10,491 nt of DNA, from IMG/VR virus record IMGVR_UViG_2690316028_000010. One strand, given 5' to 3'. The first letter of the stretch is position 1, and every line of letters starts with the position of its first letter. The stretch is from a virus. Its lineage: Duplodnaviria > Heunggongvirae > Uroviricota > Caudoviricetes. A program made the translations under genes and the position numbers. Shown here piece by piece: positions 1 to 10,491 of this stretch. The notes beneath the pieces were generated by a model. It was not told where the DNA came from and ran no database searches. It was given only the letters and a program-made list of their open reading frames with translations.

Positions 1-780
1 TTATGGCCTTGTATTTCCTTTTCTTAACTTCTTTTCGCTCTTTTTTACAAGCTTAATTAACCACTCTGGCTCATCCGACAGTTCGGAGTAATAGCAGTAT
101 TCTGGTATTGCTTTCCAAAATGTTGTTATTGCATCAGCAAATTCAACAAACTGTTCTTCTGTTACATGCAGATCATCATGAGTAGGATTGATATGTCTGC
201 CGCATATACCAGTAGGATGAGGGTAATATTCTGGATGAGTTGATGATAGGAGGCGGTGAGAATTTCCATCACCATGTTTGTACACATTTACGACTAATGC
301 GCACGCTTTGAGCTTATCGCCATAATCAGTTTCATCTATCTTGAGACCGATCCACTCGAGCAGTTTCAACAGTTGATCAAAATTTAAATCCCAAACCATT
401 GGTGTAATGATCTCTTTATCACACCAATGAGACAATTCTCTGATCGTTTTTTCTCGTAACTTTTTATCGAACTGGTGATACATACCCGCAGTTACTGCCA
501 AAAGAACAGTTTCTTGCATTTCAATAAGTGACCAGACGTAGTTTACACCCTCCTCATATGCTTGCTCATAGGCTGCCATTGGGTCGTCAAAATCAGGATT
601 GAAATGCTCAGCGGTATACTCCAGAAACTGTTTCTCTCGCTCCTCCGCCTCTTGGGTCAGATCCCCAAACTGAGACAAAAGTCTCCGTCTTGCTTCCGAA
701 ACATAAAATTCGTGAGGTTCAAGAAAATAGGGCCGATCTACTTTAGCAAGCCAAAATGTCACGAAGTTATCTGATGACAT
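1..780 (-). CDS. hypothetical protein, 259 aa, AT-rich accessory gene; function unknown
   Basis: Complete ORF: ATG at 780-778 (plus 'cat'), stop TAA at 3-1. SD-like 'aagga' about 7 nt upstream on minus strand. Protein has mixed composition, not low-complexity. Local GC is clearly lower than the central block (by-eye count of the first 120 nt ~37%). No family recognised. Confidence 0.6.
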   Translation of the reverse strand: MSSDNFVTFWLAKVDRPYFLEPHEFYVSEARRRLLSQFGDLTQEAEEREKQFLEYTAEHFNPDFDDPMAAYEQAYEEGVNYVWSLIEMQETVLLAVTAGMYHQFDKKLREKTIRELSHWCDKEIITPMVWDLNFDQLLKLLEWIGLKIDETDYGDKLKACALVVNVYKHGDGNSHRLLSSTHPEYYPHPTGICGRHINPTHDDLHVTEEQFVEFADAITTFWKAIPEYCYYSELSDEPEWLIKLVKKSEKKLRKGNTRP

Positions 781-924
781 AACTTATCCTTGATAATTAT
801 TGTATGGATAGATTATCCAGAAATTTGCGAACTGAGTCGGTCATTTTTTTTTGTGTGCGCGTGATGTAATAAAGGTTCAGGAATATACTGTCAGTTTACT
901 GAAAAACTGGCAACAGAGGCGGTT
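781..924. promoter_or_regulatory. divergent intergenic region between the 259-aa gene (minus) and the 75-aa gene (plus); presumed to hold both promoters
   Basis: 144-bp AT-rich gap with a T9 run (843-851) between two outward-facing start codons. No confident -35/-10 pair could be assigned by eye. Confidence 0.3.
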
Positions 925-1152
925 ATGAGCGAGAGTTACGAGTTCTCAGCAGGTTGTTTTTTGAAGCTATCAATATCTTCAGGGTATTTCACTATCAAAA
1001 TTCAGGGAGATCTCCCCGCTCGTGCAGCTAGTGCCATCTTGGCAGATGATGTCGAGCAGGTTTTATCTCAACTAGACAAATGTTTTCAGCTGAGTAATAG
1101 GCAACGAGAAGGGATCGTTAAGTATCTTATGTCGAAGGGGATGCAGCCTTGA
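925..1152 (+). CDS. hypothetical small protein, 75 aa
   Basis: ATG at 925 preceded by SD 'agagg' (915-919). Stop TGA at 1150-1152 overlaps the next gene's ATG (TGATG), indicating translational coupling. Confidence 0.5.
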   Translation: MSESYEFSAGCFLKLSISSGYFTIKIQGDLPARAASAILADDVEQVLSQLDKCFQLSNRQREGIVKYLMSKGMQP

Positions 1153-1610
1153 TGACTTGGATCACCCAAACAGATAACTGGACAGGGATCGCGGCGTGGG
1201 CGGGTTTTGCTTTGTCCGTATTTCAATTACTAAAATCCAGAACATCGCTAAGGCTTTATCTCGGATGTGATCAGCACGAGGACAGGATATACGTTTCGAA
1301 CATAAGCGCACACGATGTAACGTTGAGTGCAGCCGGTGTGGTAACAGCCAGTGGACGCCTTAGAATGTTATCCGACGAATATTCGGACGAGAACATGATC
1401 ACACCGATGCTGCCAAAAAGATTGAAAGCACGAGACGAAATGGTCTTGAACGTGCCATTCATAAATAAGGCTCATCACAACAAAGTGCATCATCGTGGCG
1501 GGGTTTATATCAAAACATCTGACGGCAAGATGTTCAGTGATGTTTGTTGGATCAAACGCCAATGGTGGTGGTTACTGTCTGTAATACTACGAGACACAAA
1601 GCGATACTAA
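1152..1610 (+). CDS. hypothetical membrane-anchored protein, 152 aa from ATG 1152 (ORF track starts at TTG 1149)
   Basis: Start ATG 1152 overlaps upstream stop. One N-terminal hydrophobic stretch 'WTGIAAWAGFALSVFQLL' (~1182-1235) consistent with a single TM helix or signal anchor; remainder hydrophilic with a His-rich patch (HHNKVHH). Stop TAA 1608-1610. Confidence 0.5.
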   Translation: MTWITQTDNWTGIAAWAGFALSVFQLLKSRTSLRLYLGCDQHEDRIYVSNISAHDVTLSAAGVVTASGRLRMLSDEYSDENMITPMLPKRLKARDEMVLNVPFINKAHHNKVHHRGGVYIKTSDGKMFSDVCWIKRQWWWLLSVILRDTKRY

Positions 1611-1639
1611 GTTGATTGATAGTCCGAGGTGATGTTCTG

Positions 1640-1657
1640 CCCAGCGTAGTTGCTGGG
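1640..1657 (+). terminator. weak hairpin downstream of the 75/152-aa pair (6-bp stem cccagc/gctggg, 6-nt loop)
   Basis: Inverted repeat 1640-1645 / 1652-1657. No following U-tract, so at best a weak terminator or RNA structure. Confidence 0.2.
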
Positions 1658-1690
1658 TGATACACCTTCAATGATTCTTGTTAGTGTGTA

Positions 1691-1699
1691 GGGGGGGGG
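1691..1699 (+). repeat. homopolymeric G9 tract immediately upstream of the 72-aa ORF start
   Basis: Sequence 'gggggggggc' then ATG at 1701. Upstream in-frame stop TAG at 1689-1691 places the tract in the 5' UTR / ribosome-binding region, not inside coding sequence. Confidence 0.9.
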
Positions 1700-1700
1700 C

Positions 1701-1919
1701 ATGTTGGATTTTAAAGCTGAGTTTGTTGGCGGCAGCCATAGCGGCGAGGTTATATCACCGATGTCCGAGGTAGAACTTAATAAACTAGGGTATAGAGTCC
1801 ATTTACGTGGTGCCCCCTCTGGCGATGAAATGCCTGTACACGTTGTTGTACCTATTGAATGGTCAGCGGATGAAGCACACAGAGCCATAATGCAGCGCTG
1901 GGGTAAACGCAGACGGTAG
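1701..1919 (+). CDS. hypothetical small protein, 72 aa, basic C-terminus (WGKRRR)
   Basis: ATG 1701, stop TAG 1917-1919; G-rich SD-like sequence directly upstream. Composition more protein-like than the overlapping minus-strand ORF 1607-1930 (S/P/T-rich). No family recognised. Confidence 0.45.
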   Translation: MLDFKAEFVGGSHSGEVISPMSEVELNKLGYRVHLRGAPSGDEMPVHVVVPIEWSADEAHRAIMQRWGKRRR

Positions 1920-2301
1920 ATGTCGCGCATTTCTCTTAAACTGGCTGCTGTGTTTGGTGCTAATTATCCATGCAAAGTGGCCTAAGCTACGTGGAAGAAT
2001 GATCAGTTTCGCATTATTTGGTTCAAGGAGGGCTCCCCCACAGCCTCACTCTCTGAATGCAAAACAGCCCCACAATCCCACTGTTAAAAGTCCCAGCTTG
2101 AAAATTGCACGCTTATGGTTGCCCCTCCCTCAACTCTATAGCTCGCCCGCGCCCCCGTGTGCATGTGCGTGCCCGCGCGTCAGGGGTCGCTGAGAAACCC
2201 TAAGATTTTGCTCATCCGAGACAAGCATTACCTGCACCTGTAAAACGCGAAATTACCTCTCAAACACCACACATAAACCCACTTTGCATTGAGATCTGAC
2301 A
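1920..2301. other. ~380-bp GC-rich, apparently non-coding spacer with C-rich runs and an alternating purine-pyrimidine tract
   Basis: Only ORF here (1954-2193) is Pro/Ala/Arg-rich and low-complexity. Contains 'gcccgcgc' twice (2146-2153, 2171-2178) flanking 'gtgtgcatgtgcgtg' (2157-2171). Sits upstream of the capsid-like operon. Confidence 0.4.
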
Positions 2302-2649
2302 ATGACCTTACTGACACCTGAAAACGTGGCAGCGGCTAGGGCTGCCCGTAGCGCGAGGATTGAACACTGGAAAGCCAACGCCAGCCAGCTTAAGCAGGAC
2401 TTTGCTGACGAAGCGCACTGGCGGCGGCTCGCCTCACGCTTCGGCGTGCGTATGCCCTCGGCGTATGTTCCCGGCTCCGAGCTGCGATTGCTGCGCCGGG
2501 CGGCCAAACGCGCGGGCATCTCTGGTGCTGATATGCGCGATGCTTTTGGTGGGGGCGTTGCGCACCTGCACGAGCTTAATCCCCATTGGCCTGCCTTCGC
2601 GCTTATCGGCCTGATTCTTGAGATCGCGGCTGAAAAAGCTGCTGCCTGA
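2302..2649 (+). CDS. hypothetical protein, 115 aa, Ala/Arg-rich with hydrophobic C-terminus; first gene of the capsid-like operon
   Basis: ATG 2302, stop TGA 2647-2649. Codon third positions G/C-biased, consistent with real coding in this GC-rich block. Function not recognised; a small scaffold or packaging-associated protein are possibilities only. Confidence 0.5.
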   Translation: MTLLTPENVAAARAARSARIEHWKANASQLKQDFADEAHWRRLASRFGVRMPSAYVPGSELRLLRRAAKRAGISGADMRDAFGGGVAHLHELNPHWPAFALIGLILEIAAEKAAA

Positions 2650-2717
2650 TTCATCCCATTCTCTTTTCCCCTTTTCCATAAATCGCGCTGGCTAACGCTG
2701 GCGCGGGAGCTATTTCT

Positions 2718-3713
2718 ATGACTGACAATGTTTATACCCCTGACCAATTCCGCCCGCACTGGGGCGGTGTAGATGCTGACAACGACATTCACATTGAAGC
2801 GTATGACCGGGACGTTCAGACCCGCCTTGAGGCAAAGAGCGTGTTTCTCGCCGAGGGGCTGAGCACATACAAGCCGCTGAAAAACAGTAATCAGTATCGT
2901 GTAGACCGCCTGAGCGGAGATCTGGAGGTGAAGGGCAGAACCGCAGGGCAATCGCTGGAGCCTACCGCCGTTAAGTCGGACAAGCTGATTATCTCTGTGG
3001 ATACGCTGAGCTATATCCGCATCCCGATTGACTATCAAGACGACTGGACAGCGCCCACCTTTCGCGCAGAGCTGAGCCGCAACATGGGGACAGCCCATGC
3101 AAAGTTCTACGACGAAGCGCACACTATCCAGCTAATCAAAGCGACTGACTTTGTACCGCCGCCTACGTTGCAACCAACGTTTAACCCGCTGACGGATAAT
3201 GTTGTCTCGCTCGACCTGACAACGGGGAGCGAAGAGGATGCGGCTAACGAACTGGTTCACGCTATTAAAGCTGCTGTTAATCGATTCCTAACTGAAAAAG
3301 ATATTCCGGTGGCGGAGCTGTGCCTTCTCATCGACCCAGCTTGGTTCAGCATCCTGATGGAACATAAGAAGTTGATGAACGTCCGTTACAGCCGGGATAG
3401 TGGCAATGATTACGCATGGCGTCGCGTTGGCTATGTCGCTGGGGTGCGAGTTATTGAGCTGAACAGTTACCCGCAGGAAGCCATTACCGCGCATGAACTG
3501 GGCGCTGATTATGATGTGACCGCAGGGGAAGCGCTGACACGGGCGACGCTGTTCCGGCCTGCGTCTGTACTTGTGACAGTCGAAGCGCAGAGCGTTATCA
3601 ATCGCCAGTGGGATGATGAACGCGAAATGACAATGGTGATGGACTCATATCGCCTGTTCAATGTTGGGCTGCGCCGCCCTGACTGCGTTATAAATTTCCG
3701 ACAAGCTGCATAA
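2718..3713 (+). CDS. putative phage major capsid protein (HK97-fold / T7 gp10-like), 331 aa
   Basis: ATG 2718 with SD 'gggag' ~8 nt upstream; stop TAA 3711-3713. Several segments resemble T7-type capsid proteins from memory (e.g. 'IPVAELCLLIDPAWFSILM', C-terminal 'GLRRPDCVINFR'). Followed 17 nt later by an HNH gene, a common capsid-module neighbour. Similarity is by recall, not alignment. Confidence 0.5.
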   Translation: MTDNVYTPDQFRPHWGGVDADNDIHIEAYDRDVQTRLEAKSVFLAEGLSTYKPLKNSNQYRVDRLSGDLEVKGRTAGQSLEPTAVKSDKLIISVDTLSYIRIPIDYQDDWTAPTFRAELSRNMGTAHAKFYDEAHTIQLIKATDFVPPPTLQPTFNPLTDNVVSLDLTTGSEEDAANELVHAIKAAVNRFLTEKDIPVAELCLLIDPAWFSILMEHKKLMNVRYSRDSGNDYAWRRVGYVAGVRVIELNSYPQEAITAHELGADYDVTAGEALTRATLFRPASVLVTVEAQSVINRQWDDEREMTMVMDSYRLFNVGLRRPDCVINFRQAA

Positions 3714-3729
3714 CAAAAGGGGCCGAGCC

Positions 3730-4161
3730 ATGAATATTGATGCTTATGCCCCGGAGCTGTTGCGCTCTTTGTTTCGGTACGATGCGAAGACTGGCCGCCT
3801 GTTCCATGCAGTAGACCGGATCGGAGCCAACAAGCGGATTTACGCTAAAGCCGGGGAACTGGCCGACACGGTAACGGACAGCGCCGGATATAGGCGCGTA
3901 TCTGTCCGCATCAATGGCAAATCTCATGCGCTATACGCCCACCGTGTCGCCTTCATCATTGCTAATGACGGTATCCCTGCCGGGATGCAAATCGACCATA
4001 TCAACGCGGTACGCGATGACAACCGCCTTATCAATCTCCGCACGGTTACGCCACAAGAGAACCAGCACAATTACCGCAAAGCCAAGGGTTATAGCCACCA
4101 TGCCTGCTCTGGCAGATGGGAGGCTTACATTCGCGTTGGTGATCCACCGCGCGATAAATAA
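3730..4161 (+). CDS. HNH endonuclease (HNH_3-type, phage-associated), 143 aa
   Basis: ATG 3730 with SD 'aaagggg'; stop TAA 4159-4161. Clear HNH signature 'IDHINAVRDDNRLINLRTVTPQENQHN' and the N-terminal 'GYRRVSVRINGKSHALYAHRVAFI' pattern typical of this family. Confidence 0.85.
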   Translation: MNIDAYAPELLRSLFRYDAKTGRLFHAVDRIGANKRIYAKAGELADTVTDSAGYRRVSVRINGKSHALYAHRVAFIIANDGIPAGMQIDHINAVRDDNRLINLRTVTPQENQHNYRKAKGYSHHACSGRWEAYIRVGDPPRDK

Positions 4162-4200
4162 GCCGCAATCCGTGAGATAAATGGACACGGTGCGGCTTTT
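4161..4200. terminator. bidirectional intrinsic terminator candidate between convergent HNH and tape-measure genes
   Basis: Imperfect hairpin: 'agccgca' (4161-4167) pairs with 'tgcggct' (4191-4197), inner stem 'ccgtg'/'cacgg', followed by TTTT (4197-4200) on plus strand and an A/T-rich run on the other side. Lies in the 66-bp gap between the two converging stop codons. Confidence 0.5.
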
Positions 4201-4227: not shown

Positions 4228-6711
4228 TCAGTCGTAAGCAACCCGGCGCTTACGGGCAAGGATAGCTTCCAGTGCTCTTTCAATCTCAGGAATGGACAGC
4301 TTAAGCGCATTGGCCACATCCGGTGCTGGTGACTTGTTCTTGCCATCAATATAGATATTGTTAATGACGTTAATCCCGCCGCCTGCGCCTGCTGGTGAAT
4401 GAGAGTCCCGGCCTCTGGGTAAGGTAAGGTCGCCGCGCATATAGCGCTCTAATACGGGGGGTACTTTCGGCACATCCGGCACCATCATATCAGCCAGCCG
4501 CGAGGAGGCTTTCAGCGCCAGTGATGCAGACTGACCAATGCCAATCGCCGCCCCTTCTGCGATATTAGACCCGAAGCCCATAAATACACGGCTTGGCGAG
4601 TGAATCCCCAGCTTTTCCTTGAACCAGCCGCCGACACTGTCACCCATCTCAGTGACGGTATTCTTGAGAGACTCCCACTTGTTTTTGATACCGTTCACCA
4701 GTCCATCAATCAAGTGACCACCAAACTCAGTAAACTGGCCGGGAAGGTCGATGTTAAACCACTTCATGACCCCCGCAAACGCCTTGTAGAACAGCCCCAG
4801 CGGCGACCAGTTCAGGATTAGCTTACTGACACCAAGAACCCCGCCGTTAAAGGCTGTTTTCACTTCCTCCCACCGCTGCGAGAACCATCGGCTTATCGCG
4901 CCCCAGTTGCGGTAAATCAGGTACGCGCCCCCGGCGATGATGGTTATCGCAATGCCTATGGGGTTCATTAACAGCGCCCTGCCAAACCAGAGGAAAGCCT
5001 TTGCCACCACCATTACGCCTCTGAACAGTCCACCCGCCAGCGCTTTACCCAGCATTCCGGCTCCCTTCGCCACGGTACTGAATCCGGTAGCCAGCCAGCG
5101 CAGCTTTCCGCCGTCGCTCAGGGCGGTTTTGAGCAACAGCCAGTTAGTGCGCAGCAGTACGGCGTTTTTCCACAACCCGGCGAACGGTGATACCAGCAGA
5201 TTCAGGCCGAGTTTCAGCCCGACAGTGGCGATTTTCAGCCCCAGCAGTACGCCCACGGTTTTTGCCACACCCTGAACAATGCCGGGATGTTGCGCTATCC
5301 ATTGCCCGGTGGAATGAATCAGCGGAATCAGTTGCTGCGTCATTGACACGAACGAGGGAGACAGTTGACTGCCAAGGGTAATGGACAGTTCGCGGGTGCT
5401 GACCATCAGTGCTTTGGTCGCCTCCAGCGGCGATTTCAGTCGCTCCGTGTAGGAGGAGGCCAGCAGGTCTTTATCCGCCGCCTTAAGTGCGCCAGCCCTG
5501 ATTTCGCGGTATTTGTCCATGTTGGCGAGCATCGGACGGACAAACGCCATGACCTGCATATCGGCGAACATCTCACCCAGACCGAAATTCTTTGCCAGTT
5601 CCTGTAACGCAAGGTCGCGGGAGTTATCGTCCTTGATTTTCATTGCTTTCTTGAAGCCTGCCAGTGCTTCCGGGCTTTTGGCCTCCAGATACCTGCCCAT
5701 GACGCTTATCATGCCCTCAATGGGCGAGACGCCAGCAGATTTATAAGCCATGAGTGACCCCTGAAGGTCAATCCCGATATCGGCAAACTGTTTCTGCGTG
5801 TCGCGGGCAAAAATCTTGGTGAGGAAGTTACGGAAGTTGTTACCAGCCTCGTCAGATGACCCGGCACCAATTCGGGCAATCTGTAAACTCGCTCCGATTT
5901 CCGCCATCGCTTCTTTACCTTCGGCAATACCGCGCATCATCGGGGCAAGAGATGGCATCCATTTCACCTGGTCAGGTATTTCAAAAGACCCTTGGTCGCC
6001 TGCAAAGGCCATGATGTTCTGTACTTTGGCAAACTCTTTAGCGCTGCCATCCATCGAGTTTTTCCAGACGGCGGCAACCTTCGCCCATTCCGTCCCTGTG
6101 GTGCGTGTGGCAGTAGCGGCGCGGGCTATATTGGGCATGAAGCTGCCAATTTCGGACACACTGTCGATATTGTCACTGATAAGCGAGCCTACGGCGTCCT
6201 GTAAGTCGCTCTGGTACTGGTTGTACTTGAGCGACCATCCCCGGATTTGCTGCCCCAGACTGGCGCGGGTTTTATCGTCATATTTCGCCGTGATCGACAT
6301 ATCAATCATCTTGTCGTCGAACGTAGCCGACTGCTGAATCGCCGGGGAAACGAGGCTGTAAGCGGCTTTGGCCTGCGCCCACGTCTCAATTCCCTGTCCA
6401 TAAAGCGCCATCCGGTTAGCTCTCAGGGCATCGGTTGTGGCAGACGCTGCCGACAGGCGGGACTGCTGGCGGTTTAGTTGCTCCAGCGTTCTGCCTACCC
6501 GTTGCAGGTCATTGTTCAGGCGTGAGGCCACGCCTGAACCTACCTGACCGTAACGCTGCATGGCGCGTGACAGGCTGCTTTGTTGCTCGGTCAGGCGGCG
6601 TGACGTGTCGCCGAGAGAATCAAGCGCCCGCCGTGTGCCGCTGACGGCGGAACGGAAGCTGCTCCCGACAATACCGCCAATCATCACACCAACAGAAAAA
6701 TTATTGCTCAT
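4228..6711 (-). CDS. phage tail tape-measure protein, 827 aa
   Basis: ATG 6711-6709 with SD 'ggagtg'; stop at 4228. Helical N-terminal region, long central Gly/Ala/Leu-rich hydrophobic segment, and C-terminal 'GIHSPSRVF'-type motif that I recall from tape-measure proteins. Size is typical. Confidence 0.75.
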   Translation of the reverse strand: MSNNFSVGVMIGGIVGSSFRSAVSGTRRALDSLGDTSRRLTEQQSSLSRAMQRYGQVGSGVASRLNNDLQRVGRTLEQLNRQQSRLSAASATTDALRANRMALYGQGIETWAQAKAAYSLVSPAIQQSATFDDKMIDMSITAKYDDKTRASLGQQIRGWSLKYNQYQSDLQDAVGSLISDNIDSVSEIGSFMPNIARAATATRTTGTEWAKVAAVWKNSMDGSAKEFAKVQNIMAFAGDQGSFEIPDQVKWMPSLAPMMRGIAEGKEAMAEIGASLQIARIGAGSSDEAGNNFRNFLTKIFARDTQKQFADIGIDLQGSLMAYKSAGVSPIEGMISVMGRYLEAKSPEALAGFKKAMKIKDDNSRDLALQELAKNFGLGEMFADMQVMAFVRPMLANMDKYREIRAGALKAADKDLLASSYTERLKSPLEATKALMVSTRELSITLGSQLSPSFVSMTQQLIPLIHSTGQWIAQHPGIVQGVAKTVGVLLGLKIATVGLKLGLNLLVSPFAGLWKNAVLLRTNWLLLKTALSDGGKLRWLATGFSTVAKGAGMLGKALAGGLFRGVMVVAKAFLWFGRALLMNPIGIAITIIAGGAYLIYRNWGAISRWFSQRWEEVKTAFNGGVLGVSKLILNWSPLGLFYKAFAGVMKWFNIDLPGQFTEFGGHLIDGLVNGIKNKWESLKNTVTEMGDSVGGWFKEKLGIHSPSRVFMGFGSNIAEGAAIGIGQSASLALKASSRLADMMVPDVPKVPPVLERYMRGDLTLPRGRDSHSPAGAGGGINVINNIYIDGKNKSPAPDVANALKLSIPEIERALEAILARKRRVAYD

Positions 6712-6742
6712 GGTTCACTCCGGTTGAGTGGTTCGGTGGGCG

Positions 6743-7336
6743 TCATTCAGTCAGGGACAGGCCGCTGATTCCGGTAATCCCGGCAATTTCTTCGCTGACG
6801 GCTGCCAGTTCACTTTCAAGCCCGGTGCGTTCGCTGACCAGTGCCGCCACGGTCTTACGGCGCTCTGCCAGTGAGGGAAGTTTGTCATTACCCCACGTCA
6901 CGCTCTTATCCTTCTTAAGCGCTTCGGTCAGTCGGGTGGCGACCACATCCGGGAAGAAAAAGCAGAGCTTGCGCATTACCGCCATCCCGGTATCAGCCGG
7001 GGGGACGTTTCCTCCCAGCCCCACCAGACGGAACAGACCGGAAATATCGCCGTTCTCATTTTCCAGATTGCCCCAGCGTTCGGCGTTCCCTTCACCGCCG
7101 GAACCGTTGCAAAGAGCACGCTTGAATGACTGATATTCTTCCTGCCCGAATCGCTCAATATATTCAGGAATAAAGGAACAGTAATCATTAAGTGATAACG
7201 GCATATCCTGTAATGCGGTTATTTCGCCATTAATATCACCAATGCGACGAGAGAGCTTTTCTTTCTGCTCATTCAGGGAGGTAAGGTTATTTTTAACGGC
7301 GTTCAGTGCTTCAATGAGGGAAATAACAGGTTTCAT
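6743..7336 (-). CDS. hypothetical protein, 197 aa, coiled-coil-like N- and C-termini; possible scaffold-like or tail-assembly accessory protein
   Basis: ATG 7336-7334 lies 1 nt after the upstream gene's TAA (taaAATG) with SD 'ggag' inside the upstream gene's 3' end; stop TGA 6745-6743. Heptad-like ends; no slippery heptamer seen at the 3' end. Confidence 0.5.
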   Translation of the reverse strand: MKPVISLIEALNAVKNNLTSLNEQKEKLSRRIGDINGEITALQDMPLSLNDYCSFIPEYIERFGQEEYQSFKRALCNGSGGEGNAERWGNLENENGDISGLFRLVGLGGNVPPADTGMAVMRKLCFFFPDVVATRLTEALKKDKSVTWGNDKLPSLAERRKTVAALVSERTGLESELAAVSEEIAGITGISGLSLTE

Positions 7337-7337
7337 T

Positions 7338-7952
7338 TTAATAACTCCAGATAAAAGGTGTAGTGAGGGTGAGCGCTTCGGAATAGGAGACGTTGCAGGC
7401 TTCGCTTACATCCTTTATTAAAAGGTGCTGCGCTGCCCTCTGGCTGTCGGCTATGCCGTCGAGCTCTGAGAAATAAACGTGTGATTCATTGTGACCAAAA
7501 CAAACCGGGTAAGCGCTTTCCATAAACTCCACCTGCTCAAGCCCCTTTACGGCTGGCGGCTGTGCGCCGAGAAAACCAATATGGCGAAGATACCAGGCAC
7601 CAGTTCCGGCCGGGTTACGCGCTTCTCCCGGCCTGTAGAAAGCGGCAGACACTTTTTTATATAGACCTGACTGAACCATATCCAGCAACCTGTTATCAGG
7701 CTTAACCAGCGCGAAAAGTCTGCCGTTTTTACTTATCAGTCCGGTGGTTTCACCATAGGCGGGACTGTTACTGGCCGGATGCCCCAGGCACAGCGGCGCA
7801 CCATAACCCGCGCGATGATAGCCGTTATAGGCTGCTGCCATGTTGTCGATATCCTCGTCGGAAAAGCTGATTTCCTGCCCCGCCATCGCGGTATGTGTTC
7901 CCGCCCGGAATATCTCAATAGTTTTCCAGTTACCAATATTGATATCTGTCAT
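7338..7952 (-). CDS. putative GPO-family prohead protease / capsid scaffolding protein, N-terminal protease-like domain, 204 aa
   Basis: ATG 7952-7950; stop TAA 7340-7338. Recalled resemblance to P2 gpO N-terminus: 'FRAGTHTAMAGQEISFSDEDIDNMAAAY' vs gpO 'FRIGVEGDTCDGRVISAQDIQEMAETF', and 'LCLGH' vs gpO 'INLEH'. Shorter than P2 gpO (~284 aa). Confidence 0.55.
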   Translation of the reverse strand: MTDINIGNWKTIEIFRAGTHTAMAGQEISFSDEDIDNMAAAYNGYHRAGYGAPLCLGHPASNSPAYGETTGLISKNGRLFALVKPDNRLLDMVQSGLYKKVSAAFYRPGEARNPAGTGAWYLRHIGFLGAQPPAVKGLEQVEFMESAYPVCFGHNESHVYFSELDGIADSQRAAQHLLIKDVSEACNVSYSEALTLTTPFIWSY

Positions 7953-7953
7953 T

Positions 7954-8481
7954 TTATATTTGTCCCTGTTTCATATCGCGGCACTCTTTGTTTTTCTTAC
8001 GCTCGGCGGCAATAATCTGATAAATCCACTGAATAGAATTGCCATATTTCCTGGCTAATTCCCGATGAGTCATCCCTTGTTTGTAATCGGAAAATATCCT
8101 GGCATTTCTGTCGAAAGAGTTTCTGGCTGCGCCATTAGGTATATAGAAATTGTTACCTTTAAAGACCCTTCTAAGGTGTTCTGTAATTTCCGGGGAAATG
8201 ATTTCGGCCTGAGCCGAAAAGCAATGTATTGTAAGCAAAGCCTGCGCTATCACACCTGTAAGCTCATGCAGAAAAGATGTTGCTTTAGGGGCGTCTTCAC
8301 ATTCTATTGGCATGTAATTCTGGCAACCACCAAGATTATCAGATATATGCAAAACAATTTTATTTGCTGCACTACTTGCCTGAAGTTGTGAATAGCCCGC
8401 ATCAGTCAGAAAATCTTCAATCGCATCCCCCATTTCCCCCAGAGTGTCAGATGTTGCGTACAATCCCTCTCTTGTAATCAT
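7954..8481 (-). CDS. Mor/C-family transcriptional activator (Mu middle/late activator family), ~175 aa from ATG 8481
   Basis: C-terminal region matches the Mor pattern: 'NFYIPNGAARNSF' (cf. Mor 'QVYIPRG'), 'RIFSDYKQGMTHRELARKYGNSIQWIYQIIAAERKK' (HTH). ATG 8481-8479 has SD 'gagg' ~7 nt upstream; the ORF-track start at 8487 is a GTG too close to the SD. Stop TAA 7956-7954, 1 nt before the next gene's start. Confidence 0.75.
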   Translation of the reverse strand: MITREGLYATSDTLGEMGDAIEDFLTDAGYSQLQASSAANKIVLHISDNLGGCQNYMPIECEDAPKATSFLHELTGVIAQALLTIHCFSAQAEIISPEITEHLRRVFKGNNFYIPNGAARNSFDRNARIFSDYKQGMTHRELARKYGNSIQWIYQIIAAERKKNKECRDMKQGQI

Positions 8482-8509
8482 AATCACACCTCGGTAATGA
8501 TAAAGATGT

Positions 8510-8614
8510 GCGCTAAAAAGGCTTTATAAAGCTTTATGAGGCGTCTTTCTGGTGACAAATCAGCACATACACCATTAACGCTTTAAAATGGCTTACAGGC
8601 TTTTTTAGCGCGGG
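8510..8614. promoter_or_regulatory. regulatory region upstream of the Mor-like gene: 12-bp palindrome, tandem 'gctttat' and flanking 10-bp inverted repeats
   Basis: 'ataaagctttat' perfect palindrome at 8526-8537; 'gctttat' at 8521-8527 and 8531-8537. 'gcgctaaaaa' (8510-8519) is the inverse of 'tttttagcgc' (8602-8611). Promoter hexamers not confidently assigned. Confidence 0.35.
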
Positions 8615-8681: not shown

Positions 8682-8703
8682 AAGCCCCTCAGAGGAGGGG
8701 CTT
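8682..8703. terminator. GC-rich hairpin (9-bp stem, 4-nt loop) immediately downstream of the 96-aa gene; candidate intrinsic terminator
   Basis: 'aagcccctc' (8682-8690) pairs perfectly with 'gaggggctt' (8695-8703), loop 'agag'. Sits 17 nt past the TAA at 8722-8720; the flanking run on the minus-strand transcript is only moderately U-rich. Confidence 0.45.
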
Positions 8704-8719
8704 GCGGGATTACGCCAGA

Positions 8720-9010
8720 TTATTGAGGTCGTCTGTCTTTCCTCAATCCATCAAGTAGCGCCATGGCATCAGTAACCAGTATGCCAGCAGCATCCGTAAC
8801 CATCGAAACATCAGAGGATGCACATGATTTATCCATACCTAATGTTGACGCAAAATCAAGTAGCTTACGAACTGCGTCAAGTCGATAGGTGGCAGAGTCG
8901 TAAATTAACTCCTGATTAGCATCAGTCTTTAAAAACATAATATCATCAGAGGCACCTTGCGAAAATGACGGCATCGCACGGAAAGTATTTTGAGTTTCAG
9001 CCTGTTTCAT
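8720..9010 (-). CDS. hypothetical protein, 96 aa
   Basis: ATG 9010-9008 overlaps the upstream gene's TGA (ATGA, coupling); SD 'ggagg' ~8 nt upstream; stop TAA 8722-8720. Confidence 0.5.
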   Translation of the reverse strand: MKQAETQNTFRAMPSFSQGASDDIMFLKTDANQELIYDSATYRLDAVRKLLDFASTLGMDKSCASSDVSMVTDAAGILVTDAMALLDGLRKDRRPQ

Positions 9011-9744
9011 TGTGCAGTCCTCCGGCTAATAGCGAATTTATTATAAACTTCATAACTGGCAGCATTCAGTCCGGGGTTGTATTTATCAGCCAGAGCACAG
9101 GCAATCATATGTTCAATAAATTTTGTTATTGCGTTAAGTTCAGTTTCGTTTGAATAACGCAATGCCACTTTGAGTAACTCGCGGCAATATTGTTTTTTAT
9201 TCCCTTCGATTTGGCCTGATTTTTTTATTCCTGCCTTTTTATCTGATTCATCCTCAACAGGCAAAGATGGGATATCCTCTTTATTGGTTAGCGTTCTTTC
9301 GCAAATAATATCTTCACCAGATTGAATTACGCGCTGCAACTCTCTGGCGCTCATACGAAGAATATCATCAAGCGTGTGGTCGTTATATGCCCCACCACTG
9401 GCAAGGAGATCCAGTGTCACTTCATCCAGCCGGGCAAGCAGGTTTAACTTCGTTTTGCCGATACTTGTTTTGGCAATTGCGGCTCGGGGGGTATTGGTTA
9501 CGCCAAATATCAGAGCAACCCGCATAGCATTATGGGCTTCACGTTTATTAATTCCCCCCACTGAAAGCGCCTTTGCAAATTCCTCATTTGTTTTTGTTGC
9601 TTCCTTAAGTGCCAGCATCTCTTTACCACGATGCACTAAAGTTTCAGTCGGGGTTGGCAAAAGGAGTACAGCATCTAAAATTTTTTCCCGAAGTACATCA
9701 ACTTGGCTTGCGATGCATGAACGGTTAGACTTGTTGATACCCAT
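9007..9744 (-). CDS. hypothetical protein, ~245 aa from ATG 9744 (ORF track begins at TTG 9765); candidate early/regulatory protein
   Basis: ATG 9744-9742 preceded by SD 'gagga' ~9 nt upstream; stop TGA 9009-9007. Acidic/Lys-rich linker mid-protein; no P-loop or other catalytic motif recognised. Divergent from the RHH gene. Confidence 0.5.
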   Translation of the reverse strand: MGINKSNRSCIASQVDVLREKILDAVLLLPTPTETLVHRGKEMLALKEATKTNEEFAKALSVGGINKREAHNAMRVALIFGVTNTPRAAIAKTSIGKTKLNLLARLDEVTLDLLASGGAYNDHTLDDILRMSARELQRVIQSGEDIICERTLTNKEDIPSLPVEDESDKKAGIKKSGQIEGNKKQYCRELLKVALRYSNETELNAITKFIEHMIACALADKYNPGLNAASYEVYNKFAISRRTAQ

Positions 9745-9774
9745 GATTGTTATCCTCAATAACAATGGTGGTCA

Positions 9775-9809
9775 GGCAGGATGTGATACTGAACCTATCA
9801 TGTCCTGCC
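9775..9809. promoter_or_regulatory. imperfect dyad symmetry (13-bp arms, 11/13 matching, 9-bp spacer) upstream of the 245-aa gene
   Basis: 'ggcaggatgtgat' (9775-9787) vs 'atcatgtcctgcc' (9797-9809). Could be an operator or a 5'-UTR hairpin of the minus-strand transcript. Confidence 0.3.
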
Positions 9810-9840
9810 GCTTGCGGTTTTACATCTACTTAATGTAATG

Positions 9841-9877
9841 TACGTACCATTGATTTCAATCTAAACAATGGTACGTA
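9841..9877. promoter_or_regulatory. perfect 12-bp inverted repeat with 13-bp spacer (candidate operator) overlapping the RHH gene start codon
   Basis: 'tacgtaccattg' (9841-9852) and its exact reverse complement 'caatggtacgta' (9866-9877). The right arm covers the ATG at 9868-9870. Located in the divergent promoter region. Confidence 0.55.
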
Positions 9878-10071
9878 TCATGTCAAGAGTAAAAGATAAC
9901 ACGCCTAAAAATTCCGCAGGGCGTTCCCCGACCTTCCAAATACGTATTACACCTGAACTTAGGGAACAGCTTGATAAAGAAGCTCTTAAAGATGGTGTAA
10001 GTTTGGCCAATTGGCTCAAAGGCATTGCACGAGATGAACTACGCAGGAGAGGTATTTCTCCAAAAGGGTAG
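9868..10071 (+). CDS. ribbon-helix-helix (Arc/MetJ-like) DNA-binding protein, 67 aa; putative repressor
   Basis: 'FQIRITPELREQLDKEALKDGVSLANWLKGIARDEL' fits the RHH beta-strand plus two helices (cf. Arc 'FNLRWPREVLDLVRKVAEENGRSVNSEIYQRVMESF'). ATG 9868 (alternative ATG 9880), both with weak SD; stop TAG 10069-10071. Confidence 0.6.
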   Translation: MVRIMSRVKDNTPKNSAGRSPTFQIRITPELREQLDKEALKDGVSLANWLKGIARDELRRRGISPKG

Positions 10072-10086
10072 GGCTAATCAGGTACA

Positions 10087-10476
10087 AAAAGCGAAAACGT
10101 TTTCGCTTTTATGGCTAAGAGAGCGGATGCACTCATTAAAGCGGACAGCGCTGTCCGCCTCCAATCAGCAAAAAAACAAGATGGTTCCTCCAAAACGCTC
10201 AACGTTGAGCGTTACGTTATTCCGACAAAAGCGCAGGCGCTTGCGCTTTTGAAAGGGATCAACACGGCTTTCAAACCGGACAACGTTGACCGCTTTAAGG
10301 AATCACTGTCGGCTGAGCAAAAACGGCAAGCGCTTGCCGTTTTAGATTCGCGGGGCGGTAAACGTTTACCGTTCTGTGTCAATTATGTTCAAAAGCGAAA
10401 GCGCTTTCGCATTTTCTCACCTAAAGCGGCAAACCTCCTCTGTCTTAGCTGGAAAAACGACATCGCTGTCGTTTTT
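10087..10476. repeat. array of eight hairpin-capable palindromes of one family (A-tract, CG-rich core, T-tract)
   Basis: P1 10087-10110 aaaagcgaaaac|gttttcgctttt (perfect, 24 bp); P2 10141-10158 gcggacagc|gctgtccgc (perfect); P3 10194-10213 aacgctcaac|gttgagcgtt (perfect); P4 10227-10250 (1 mismatch); P5 10320-10343 aaaacggcaagc|gcttgccgtttt (perfect); P6 10356-10371 cggtaaac|gtttaccg (perfect); P7 10391-10414 (1 mismatch); P8 10453-10476 aaaaacgaca-tcgc-tgtcgttttt. Symmetry kept while sequence differs between copies. Confidence 0.85.
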
Positions 10477-10491
10477 AATCCGAGGTTCTAA
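10111..10491 (+). CDS. ORF of 126 aa overlapping the palindrome array; coding status doubtful
   Basis: ATG 10111 directly after palindrome P1, stop TAA 10489-10491 at window end. Repeated peptide motifs (KAQALALL, KRQALAVL, KRKRFRIF) are direct consequences of the DNA palindromes, so the frame may be open by chance. Confidence 0.3.
   Translation: MAKRADALIKADSAVRLQSAKKQDGSSKTLNVERYVIPTKAQALALLKGINTAFKPDNVDRFKESLSAEQKRQALAVLDSRGGKRLPFCVNYVQKRKRFRIFSPKAANLLCLSWKNDIAVVFNPRF

Follow-up and report, generated by a model that had tools for sequence, protein, structure and literature searches.

Results

In this work we have investigated two adjacent genes in a viral DNA stretch of 10,491 nucleotides (class Caudoviricetes, IMG/VR record IMGVR_UViG_2690316028_000010), referred to below as the window. 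They encode proteins of 245 and 96 amino acids, p245 and p96, and belong to a small element which we show to be transposable and to encode no transposase. Probably it is a phage satellite dependent on the transposition functions of BcepMu-type phages (genus Bcepmuvirus), which we call the helpers. An earlier note on this DNA had described two genes, linked by an ATGA overlap, between a repressor and an activator, and had placed them immediately downstream of a divergent operator region. The description of the pair was upheld by the open reading frames (ORFs), their junction, the ribosome-binding sites, the RefSeq annotation and the substitution rates, all of which agree. ATGA at 9007-9010 comprises the TGA stop of p245 and the ATG of p96 (junction ACT GCA CAA TGA AAC), and a Shine-Dalgarno-like sequence is located upstream of each start, GAGGA at 8 nt from 9744 and GGAGGA at 7 nt from 9010; an alternative in-frame TTG at 9765 would lengthen p245 to 252 residues. 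RefSeq annotates the same two coding sequences in E. coli AW1.7 and MS 115-1, and the p245 of the window is 100% identical to a Citrobacter freundii protein. In pairwise comparisons of six copies from five genera (Nei-Gojobori), the ratio of nonsynonymous to synonymous substitution rates (dN/dS) was 0.18-0.42 for p245 and 0.07-0.41 for p96. These values are well below 1, and p245 and p96 are therefore confirmed as real, constrained coding genes under purifying selection. The position assigned to the pair was also correct: it forms the first transcription unit off the divergent control region, beside a ribbon-helix-helix (RHH) gene and upstream of a Mor-family gene (Table 1). This order, the RHH gene and, divergently, p245, p96 and Mor, is constant in all the intact copies examined, which come from E. 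coli, Citrobacter, Enterobacter, Salmonella, Yersinia, Pectobacterium and Erwinia.

Table 1. Features of the element within the window (positions count from the first nucleotide of the window)
Feature	Position	Strand	Remarks
Element terminus	4140..4190		TGATCCACCGCGCGATAAATAAGCCGCAATCCGTGAGATAAATGG; repeats GCGATAAA and GTGAGATAAAT, resembling those of the opposite element end and of the helper phage end
Helper-related morphogenesis genes	4228..7952	minus	PHROG 976, E 1e-46
Tape measure gene	4228-6711	minus	827 aa
p197	6743-7336	minus	N-terminus coiled-coil
p204	7338-7952	minus	corresponds to the N-terminal region of the helper head protease/scaffold
Mor-family transcription activator gene	7954..8487	minus	downstream of p96; Pfam Mor, E 1.7e-25
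Terminator-like hairpin	8685..8697	minus	23 nt 3' of the p96 stop; weak, T-run short
p96 gene	8720..9010	minus	96-aa ORF
p245 gene	9007..9744	minus	245-aa ORF, ATG at 9744
Divergent control region	9745..9886		between the RHH gene and p245
RHH gene (HicB/Arc-like)	9868..10071	plus	Pfam HicB, E 2.6e-4; PHROG Arc-like repressor, E 3.7e-5; RefSeq annotation
Palindrome array	10087..10491, past window end		starts 16 nt after the RHH gene

According to the earlier note neither protein has a recognisable motif. This was true of the curated libraries, where searches of Pfam, NCBIfam, PADLOC and PDB sequences gave nothing significant for p245 or p96, but not of profile and fold methods. Among the PHROGs, p245 matched phrog_1748 alone, a family of unknown function, and a megablast search of isolated phages found no match to the region. 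A deep sequence search grouped p245 into 60 clusters, nearly all from Enterobacterales and always in the same island, a few of them named DUF3102 by their source. After about 30 residues modelled mostly at low confidence, p245 consists of a ParB/KorB-type helix-turn-helix (HTH) domain resembling DUF3102 (about residues 30-143), an acidic disordered linker (144-181) and a helical C-terminal module (182-245), the C-module. The window protein alone does not match Pfam DUF3102 (PF11300) at E <= 1, nine of 18 close family members do (best E 4.3e-6), and gp10 of the Bcepmuvirus Escherichia phage PhiKM passes the gathering score of this family (27.0 versus 24.4 bits). In a profile-profile comparison (hhalign), p245 and gp10 aligned with 99.8% probability (E 7e-29), solely between residues 29-153 of the former and 63-192 of the latter. 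Judged by these comparisons, p245 is a divergent member of DUF3102, through its N-terminal domain only. Fold matches of the HTH domain were ParB (6s6h, score 8.6), Spo0J (1vz0, 8.5) and KorB (1r71 and 8qa8, 7.0), with lower scores for SopB (5.4), P1 ParB (4.9) and VirB (4.8); in a viral structure library, DUF3102 proteins and a Spo0J-like protein ranked first. The resemblance to ParB, Spo0J and KorB has clear limits, as sequence similarity to them is not detectable, no N-terminal ParB/Srx CTP-binding domain is present (no Pfam match of the ParB type), no ParA/IncC gene accompanies p245, and the gene sits in a chromosomal, transposable context and not in a partition locus.

The N-terminal domain matches BcepMu gp10 and phiE255 gp41 by both position and sequence, and it is homologous to a 306-amino-acid PhiKM protein (E 7e-12), with BLAST similarity confined to this domain. 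The gp10 family (BcepMu gp10, phiE255 gp41, PhiKM XRL29426) shares with p245 the homologous HTH domain, at about 33% identity over ~125 residues, the motifs GKTKL and R-M-S/T-x-R-E-L, and a place in the early operon downstream of the immunity region. In other respects p245 is unlike gp10: it is shorter, has neither the N-terminal extension, the coiled coil nor the C-terminal domain of gp10, and carries an unrelated C-module instead; it is followed by p96 and mor and by no transposase gene. An exhaustive profile search gave 898 representative clusters, mostly gp10-like proteins of ~300 amino acids matched in the N-domain only. The C-module, with the pattern YCRELxRVxxRY...PGLNAAxYxV, is absent from gp10 and recurs in p245-like proteins of distant taxa. 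It also stands alone in proteins of 87-114 amino acids and is found fused to a Bro-N domain that scores below threshold (P0197, E 9e-4; P0182, E 0.028). The gene for one of the p245-like proteins of distant taxa lies, on metagenome contig L096, in a related module made up of p318, a 219-amino-acid protein, Mor, and p204-like and p197-like proteins. It is thus well supported that p245 is a DUF3102-type DNA-binding protein of the ParB/KorB fold, derived from the transposase-adjacent gene of the helper and combined with a satellite-specific effector module.

What does a domain of this type recognise? The gp10 gene lies directly upstream of the DDE transposase gene in BcepMu and phiE255 and one small gene away from it in PhiKM, with an ExeA-like ATPase gene next in order. 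Microcystis phage Mae-JY22 has the same arrangement, the downstream genes being unannotated, and TnpA lies just downstream of gp10 in 76 of 77 IMG/VR contigs. Of 79 viral gp10 genes, 53 contain a single long perfect palindrome, located near nt 346 and shortly before the GKTKL motif; one is also present in the gp10 genes of BcepMu, phiE255, PhiKM and Mae-JY22, the last phage having three copies of its palindrome. Its form is CAAA(A/T)-N6-A(A/G)CG(C/T)T-N6-(A/T)TTTG, 22-32 bp long, with arms that vary from phage to phage while remaining complementary (L012 28403-28430, L013 7035-7064, L014 4143-4168, L015 5124-5151; also L017-L095). From 45 non-redundant pairs of gp10 gene and palindrome we derived a recognition code, given here in PhiKM residue numbering. 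Arginine at residue 101 goes with CG at -8/-7 (14/14), glutamine with GC (21/21), and valine, alanine or histidine with (G/A)T (9/9). At -4 the base is C when residue 102 is arginine (26/26) and A when it is any other residue (19/19), and threonine at residue 99 goes with C at -5 (30 of 31 cases). When gp10 residues 45-289 were compared with all variable bases, residue 101 and base -7 were the top pair, with 1.51 of 1.51 bits, and outranked the residues that the palindrome itself encodes; such statistics are inflated by shared ancestry, but the same pairings recur in gp10 proteins only ~50% identical to each other. Because residues at the start of the predicted recognition helix foretell the bases in the palindrome arms almost without exception, the gp10-type domain appears to read double-stranded DNA, and from this covariation we conclude that gp10 probably binds the palindrome inside its own gene. 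ParB often binds parS sites inside parB, and the intragenic site of gp10 may be likened to these. In the literature searched we found no prior description of a gp10 function, of DUF3102 or of the gp10 palindromes.

The corresponding recognition-helix residues of the window p245 are K67-R68-E69-A70-H71-N72. At the positions equivalent to gp10 101/102 the satellite types differ among themselves (L-H, I-D, R-K, G-K and R-N), outside the classes of the helpers, and residue 71 is histidine in the window and tyrosine in the 87%-identical E. coli copies. The intragenic palindrome is absent from all nine p245-type genes examined. Palindromes of the gp10 kind are found instead in an array on the other side of the RHH gene, with nine units of 16-28 bp in the window and 13 in E. 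coli AW1.7 (L001 22189-22804). The units are all different and of helper type, their centres, AACGTT or AGCGCT, mostly alternate, and they fit the gp10 classes of helpers and not p245. In six of the nine window units the 16-nt core is identical to that of a palindrome in one or another helper gp10 gene, and one AW1.7 unit has a core identical to the PhiKM palindrome. No such palindromes occur in the flanking chromosomal DNA, and PhiKM has exactly one. The array thus looks like a collection of helper-specific cis-sites. Arrays are also present in Enterobacter, Intestinirhabdus and 'Advenella MAG' copies. The array-less copies from Pectobacterium, Yersinia and Tenebrionibacter and one from E. 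coli encode, in the same arm, a gp10-like protein of 310-318 amino acids, whose match to gp10 (E 1.7e-7 to 2e-13) extends over all or the greater part of the protein; the Salmonella copies have neither array nor gp10-like protein. The pattern of an array or an own gp10-like protein suggests that the element requires gp10 function to be supplied to it. All these variants except the Tenebrionibacter copy (L104) keep p245, also those with their own gp10-like protein, and p245 is therefore not a replacement for gp10.

The element that carries these genes is 7.3-8.2 kb long, and the right-hand 6.3 kb of the window, from 4140 to the window end, is one end of it. Alignment of copies from different genomes places its boundaries at TGATCCACCGCGCGATAAA (window 4140) and ...ATCTCATGTCTAATCA. 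The termini have the form 5'-TG...CA-3', and repeated GAGATAAAT-like motifs stand at matching distances from both ends. Perfect 6-bp target-site duplications at unrelated sites flank 13 of 14 independent insertions, in hosts that include E. coli, Enterobacter, Salmonella, Pectobacterium, Erwinia, Intestinirhabdus and Tenebrionibacter. The insertion sites include the inside of ynbC, the interval between dacD and sbmC, the neighbourhood of fecE and, in the window, the HNH gene of another prophage. Among the ORFs and annotations of the element there is no integrase and no ATPase gene, and tblastn with the PhiKM and BcepMu TnpA and TnpB queries gave no homologue below E 0.7 in eight elements. Since no DDE transposase of its own was found, the element is non-autonomous. 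The earlier note had missed the transposable, transposase-less nature of the region, which alters what 'element induction', the readout it had proposed for these genes, would mean.

Several genes of the element are related to those of the helpers. In the direction of p245 and p96, the Mor-family activator gene is followed by the genes for proteins of 204 and 197 amino acids and for the 827-amino-acid tape measure protein. The tape measure protein is 71% identical to that of PhiKM, p204 has 46% identity with the N-terminal region of the PhiKM head protein (coding sequence 5114-6229), and the Mor gene is likewise related to PhiKM; p204 and p197 may redirect capsid assembly. The other side of the element holds the RHH gene and then, in most copies, ~1.4 kb without conserved ORFs and a 114-amino-acid gene with a Gp27 (small terminase) N-domain, whose product matches the first 67 residues of PhiKM TerS. 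The terminus on this side is identical in 19 of 22 nt to that of PhiKM and of the EC958 prophage, with the next repeat at an equal distance. PhiKM-type prophages are present in 642 of 5426 complete E. coli genomes (about 12%), including ST131.

The second protein, p96, is acidic (isoelectric point 4.7) and is modelled as two long antiparallel helices (33-59 and 65-91) preceded by a beta-hairpin (residues 10-28). Its homologues are not tied to p245: in the Tenebrionibacter element a p96 homologue stands before Mor, p204 and p197, and no p245 gene is present. A P4-like satellite (L106/L107) encodes another homologue (P0074), 63% identical to the MS 115-1 variant (E 3e-32), in the order integrase, AlpA, Phage_ASH/cI-like, p96-like, P4-alpha-type primase, p204-like (36%, E 3e-38) and p197-like (35%, E 1e-34; L106 5832-7189). 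Since homologues are found in a P4-like chassis and in an element that has no p245, p96 acts on its own, independently of p245, and it was rejected as an obligate p245 partner. We conclude that p96, p204 and p197 are a helper-directed cargo set moving between unrelated satellite backbones, and it is well supported that p96 itself is an orphan helical-hairpin protein that travels with this cargo. In the gene map of P4, the slot between cI and alpha holds epsilon, the helper derepression protein of 95 amino acids, together with orf151 and orf106, and the slot of the p204 and p197 homologues in the P4-like satellite corresponds to sid-delta-psu. P4 epsilon and p96 are alike in size and in being early satellite genes, and the p96 homologue of the P4-like satellite also shares the place between the immunity region and the primase gene; in sequence epsilon and p96 differ. 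By analogy, p96 might have an epsilon-like role in derepression or takeover of the helper. Homology of p96 with P4 epsilon, orf151, orf106, the PhiKM 105-amino-acid protein or GemA was not supported by the comparisons made.

The control region between p245 and the RHH gene, the presumed repressor gene of the element, contains promoter-like sites on the minus strand at 9886..9858 and 9859..9832, a count not above the shuffled expectation. A 12-nt inverted repeat, TACGTACCATTG-N13-CAATGGTACGTA, lies at about 9841-9877 and overlaps the start of the RHH gene. This operator repeat varies by element type without tracking the p245 specificity residues, and three loci that differ in these residues (G-K, R-K and I-D) have TTGTCAT-N20-ATGACAA in common; because it is shared in this way, the repeat is more likely the operator of the RHH protein than a p245 site. 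The N-terminal ~85 residues of p245, which contain the HTH, are swapped as a block with the control region and the RHH gene. Upstream of the p245 ribosome-binding site, at 9776-9810, the leader can form a hairpin (GGCAGGA...TCCTGCC) that is followed by a conserved TGACCA. Its 7-bp stem shows fully compensatory changes, with pairing kept in four element types (GGCAGGA/TCCTGCC, GGCTCTG/CAGAGCC, GGCCATA/TATGGCC and AAGCCCG/CGGGCTT), and it may be an RNA regulatory structure or attenuator. The hairpin beyond the p96 stop suggests that p245 and p96 are a bicistronic unit apart from the Mor operon. The 232-bp spacer before mor holds the palindrome TTATAAAGCTTTATGA (8524-8539, within 8518-8539), conserved in the Pectobacterium element as TTGTAAAGCTTTATAA (L007 11485-11500), a candidate activator or regulator site of the Mor operon. 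Given the terminator-like hairpin after p96 and the conserved palindrome before mor, p245 and p96 are probably on a transcript of their own.

Discussion

What could the two genes do for an element of this kind? We tentatively read p245-p96 as an early operon under repressor control in a non-autonomous transposable element that is a candidate Bcepmuvirus satellite, and as a module for helper takeover, a reading that we hold with slightly less than even confidence. What we infer about the action of the pair on the helper, the DNA that p245 targets and the role of p96 runs as follows. On derepression of the element, p245 would go to a specific DNA site through an HTH domain that descends from gp10, has no intragenic site of its own and has rapidly varying specificity residues (K67-N72). 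Its different C-module would then alter early transcription or the control of transposition in the helper. The second protein, p96, would act separately, its target being a protein of the helper or of the host, and might derepress the helper in the manner of P4 epsilon. The earlier note had guessed at an antirepressor, replication or early-control function, and early control remains the best reading. KilA-N, Bro-N, ANT, replication initiator and small terminase domains were sought for p245 and p96 and found in neither with Pfam or PHROG. A DUF3102 protein with a ParB/KorB-type HTH is nearer to replication or early control than to an antirepressor; the antirepressor idea is kept as a positional analogy for p96 alone, which occupies the epsilon slot with no sequence similarity to epsilon.

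Several observations weigh against a takeover module. The fold of p96 is a generic helical hairpin and not diagnostic, and a search with the p96 family profile (hmmsearch) gave P4 epsilon only at E 0.8. No DNA target can be assigned to p245, since its specificity residues match no class of the helper code, and the operator inverted repeat does not co-vary with them. The C-terminal domain of p245 is modelled with low confidence (pLDDT 48-71), and the p245-like gene of more distant relatives is followed by a gene that has no homology to p96. Variants that encode a full-length gp10-like protein still retain p245.

The main alternative, in our opinion rather unlikely, is that the pair serves the element alone and leaves the helper untouched. 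p245 would then be the regulator of the lytic switch of the element, of the Cro/Ner or KorB-like kind, acting on sites within the element, for instance in its own leader, in the divergent control region or ahead of mor, with p96 as a modulator. DNA-binding domains of the KorB type are classical operon repressors, and the KorB-type fold match of p245 speaks for such a role, as do its place as the first gene after the divergent operator, opposite the RHH gene, the joint exchange of the HTH block, the control region and the RHH gene, and the conserved palindrome before mor. However, the G-K, R-K and I-D loci share one and the same operator repeat, the DNA-binding domain of p245 comes from a transposase-linked helper protein and not from the Cro or Ner family, and the occurrence of p96 without p245 and in another satellite chassis is not what would be expected of a dedicated cofactor. 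Could the pair instead be directed against phages? Satellites such as P4, SaPI and PLE commonly interfere with their helpers, and p245, with or without p96, might block the helper or rival phages, for example by occupying gp10-type sites or by poisoning gp10. A DNA-binding domain that is a paralogue of a helper early protein and is no longer joined to the gp10 C-terminal region would suit this task, and fast-changing specificity residues are as expected in an arms race. Nevertheless we consider interference improbable, as the PADLOC defence models were unmatched and the specificity residues of p245 do not coincide with the helper classes.

Two further explanations are disfavoured. The genes might be remnants in a decaying prophage fragment, with no present function; partial copies of helper genes (the N-terminal part in p204 and the Gp27 N-domain) and the degenerate variant in ST131 described below, which has lost the tape measure gene, contains IS5 and encodes a p245 homologue without the DNA-binding domain, could be taken in this sense. 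Such decay is very hard to reconcile with the dN/dS of both genes across genera, with an intact architecture of 7.3-8.2 kb, including ends and duplications, at no fewer than 13 independent sites in at least eight genera, and with a related module in distant taxa. Least probable of all is a role in partition or maintenance, in which p245 would be a ParB-like centromere binder and the array the centromere of an extrachromosomal form. The ParB-like fold next to an array of palindromes brings this to mind, but both the N-terminal CTPase domain of ParB and a ParA gene are absent, so that a ParABS system was rejected, and every copy seen is inserted in a chromosome with target duplications. The array units, moreover, match the specificities of helper gp10 proteins and not a single p245 specificity, and p245 is kept in variants that have no array. 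A toxin-antitoxin pair was also rejected, the gene order and sizes being atypical and no toxin-antitoxin family being matched.

If the element is a satellite, as its helper-like ends, its gene fragments of helper origin and the cargo shared with a P4-like satellite indirectly suggest, it has both likenesses to known ones and marked differences from them. Like P4-like satellites, PICI/SaPI, cfPICI and PLE, it is small, lacks a full set of virion genes, and combines helper-related morphogenesis and activator genes with a repressor-controlled early operon. Unlike them it has no integrase, primase or replication initiator, and it moves by transposition that duplicates 6 bp at many chromosomal sites. 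To our knowledge, every satellite family that has been well studied supplies its own integrase and, as a rule, replication functions as well. With laboratory mini-Mu the element has in common transposon ends of the phage type and the lack of a transposase; it differs in being natural and conserved, in encoding regulators of its own and in carrying an array of helper cis-sites. As far as we know, borrowing of a helper transposase has been known mainly from such mini-Mu constructs, and the literature searched contained no description of satellites of transposable phages. One may go further and join all these observations: the element would represent a new class of satellites without integrase, replicase or transposase, copied and moved by the DDE transposase of BcepMu-type phages, in which p245 is a gp10 derivative diversified in specificity, the array gathers the cognate palindromes of many helper gp10 variants and captures the gp10 of any helper present, other versions of the element encode a full-length gp10-like protein in its stead, and p96 is an epsilon-like derepression or takeover factor exchanged with P4-like satellites. 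That all of this holds together is doubtful. If it were true, DUF3102 proteins would be site-specific DNA binders with a simple, readable recognition code.

The satellite reading has consequences of its own. The satellite would borrow the transposase of its helper, and DUF3102/gp10, with its 898 representative clusters, would gain a first testable role, that of binding a palindrome in its own gene upstream of the transposase. An array holding many helper-specific versions of one cis-site would be an unusual way to cope with the diversity of helpers. Perhaps elements that exploit or block PhiKM-type prophages could also affect prophage induction and gene transfer in clinical strains.

Other features of the element and its surroundings

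In the window the element is inserted at the 3' end of the HNH endonuclease ORF (3730-4161), which reads 22 nt into it; the adjoining flank is 4128-4139. Positions 1-4139 are a different phage-like region, with a major head protein gene (2718-3713, phrog_267), the HNH endonuclease gene, several small ORFs and, at 1-780 on the minus strand, a gene for a phrog_19541 protein. It seems that the element transposed into another prophage. The Yersinia copy (L109 7545 and 14757) is the sole one of the 14 insertions without a 6-bp duplication across its flanks, which may be due to rearrangement or to recombination between two copies. AW1.7 contains two extra matches resembling element ends.

An ORF of 126 codons runs over the array (10111-10491, plus strand). 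In E. coli copies it is cut to 79 amino acids by a stop codon, its sequence is largely dictated by the palindromes, in the same frame as in helper gp10 (KAQALALL, KRQALAVL), and it is unlikely to be a gene. An inverted repeat of ~35 nt, GTGGATGCGTGACGCGCTCAGGTTGAGGC ... GCCTCAACCTGAGCGCGTCACGCATCCAC, with arms ~200 nt apart (L001 22860-23140), is located in the stretch without ORFs that separates the array from the Gp27 gene; an Rfam search of the whole AW1.7 element, including this repeat, gave nothing significant.

A degenerate copy beside tRNA-Ser in E. coli ZH063 and other ST131-type genomes (L011 18196-22600) has no tape measure gene and contains IS5. Its p245 homologue of 159 amino acids keeps the C-module, is without the DNA-binding domain and has an inserted beta-rich segment that is also present in a 304-amino-acid version from Pectobacterium. 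About 23 E. coli genomes match solely through the Mor region of this variant. The tape measure protein, 827 amino acids long in the element, has 983 in the helper-type prophage of EC958 (L016 5311-8262).

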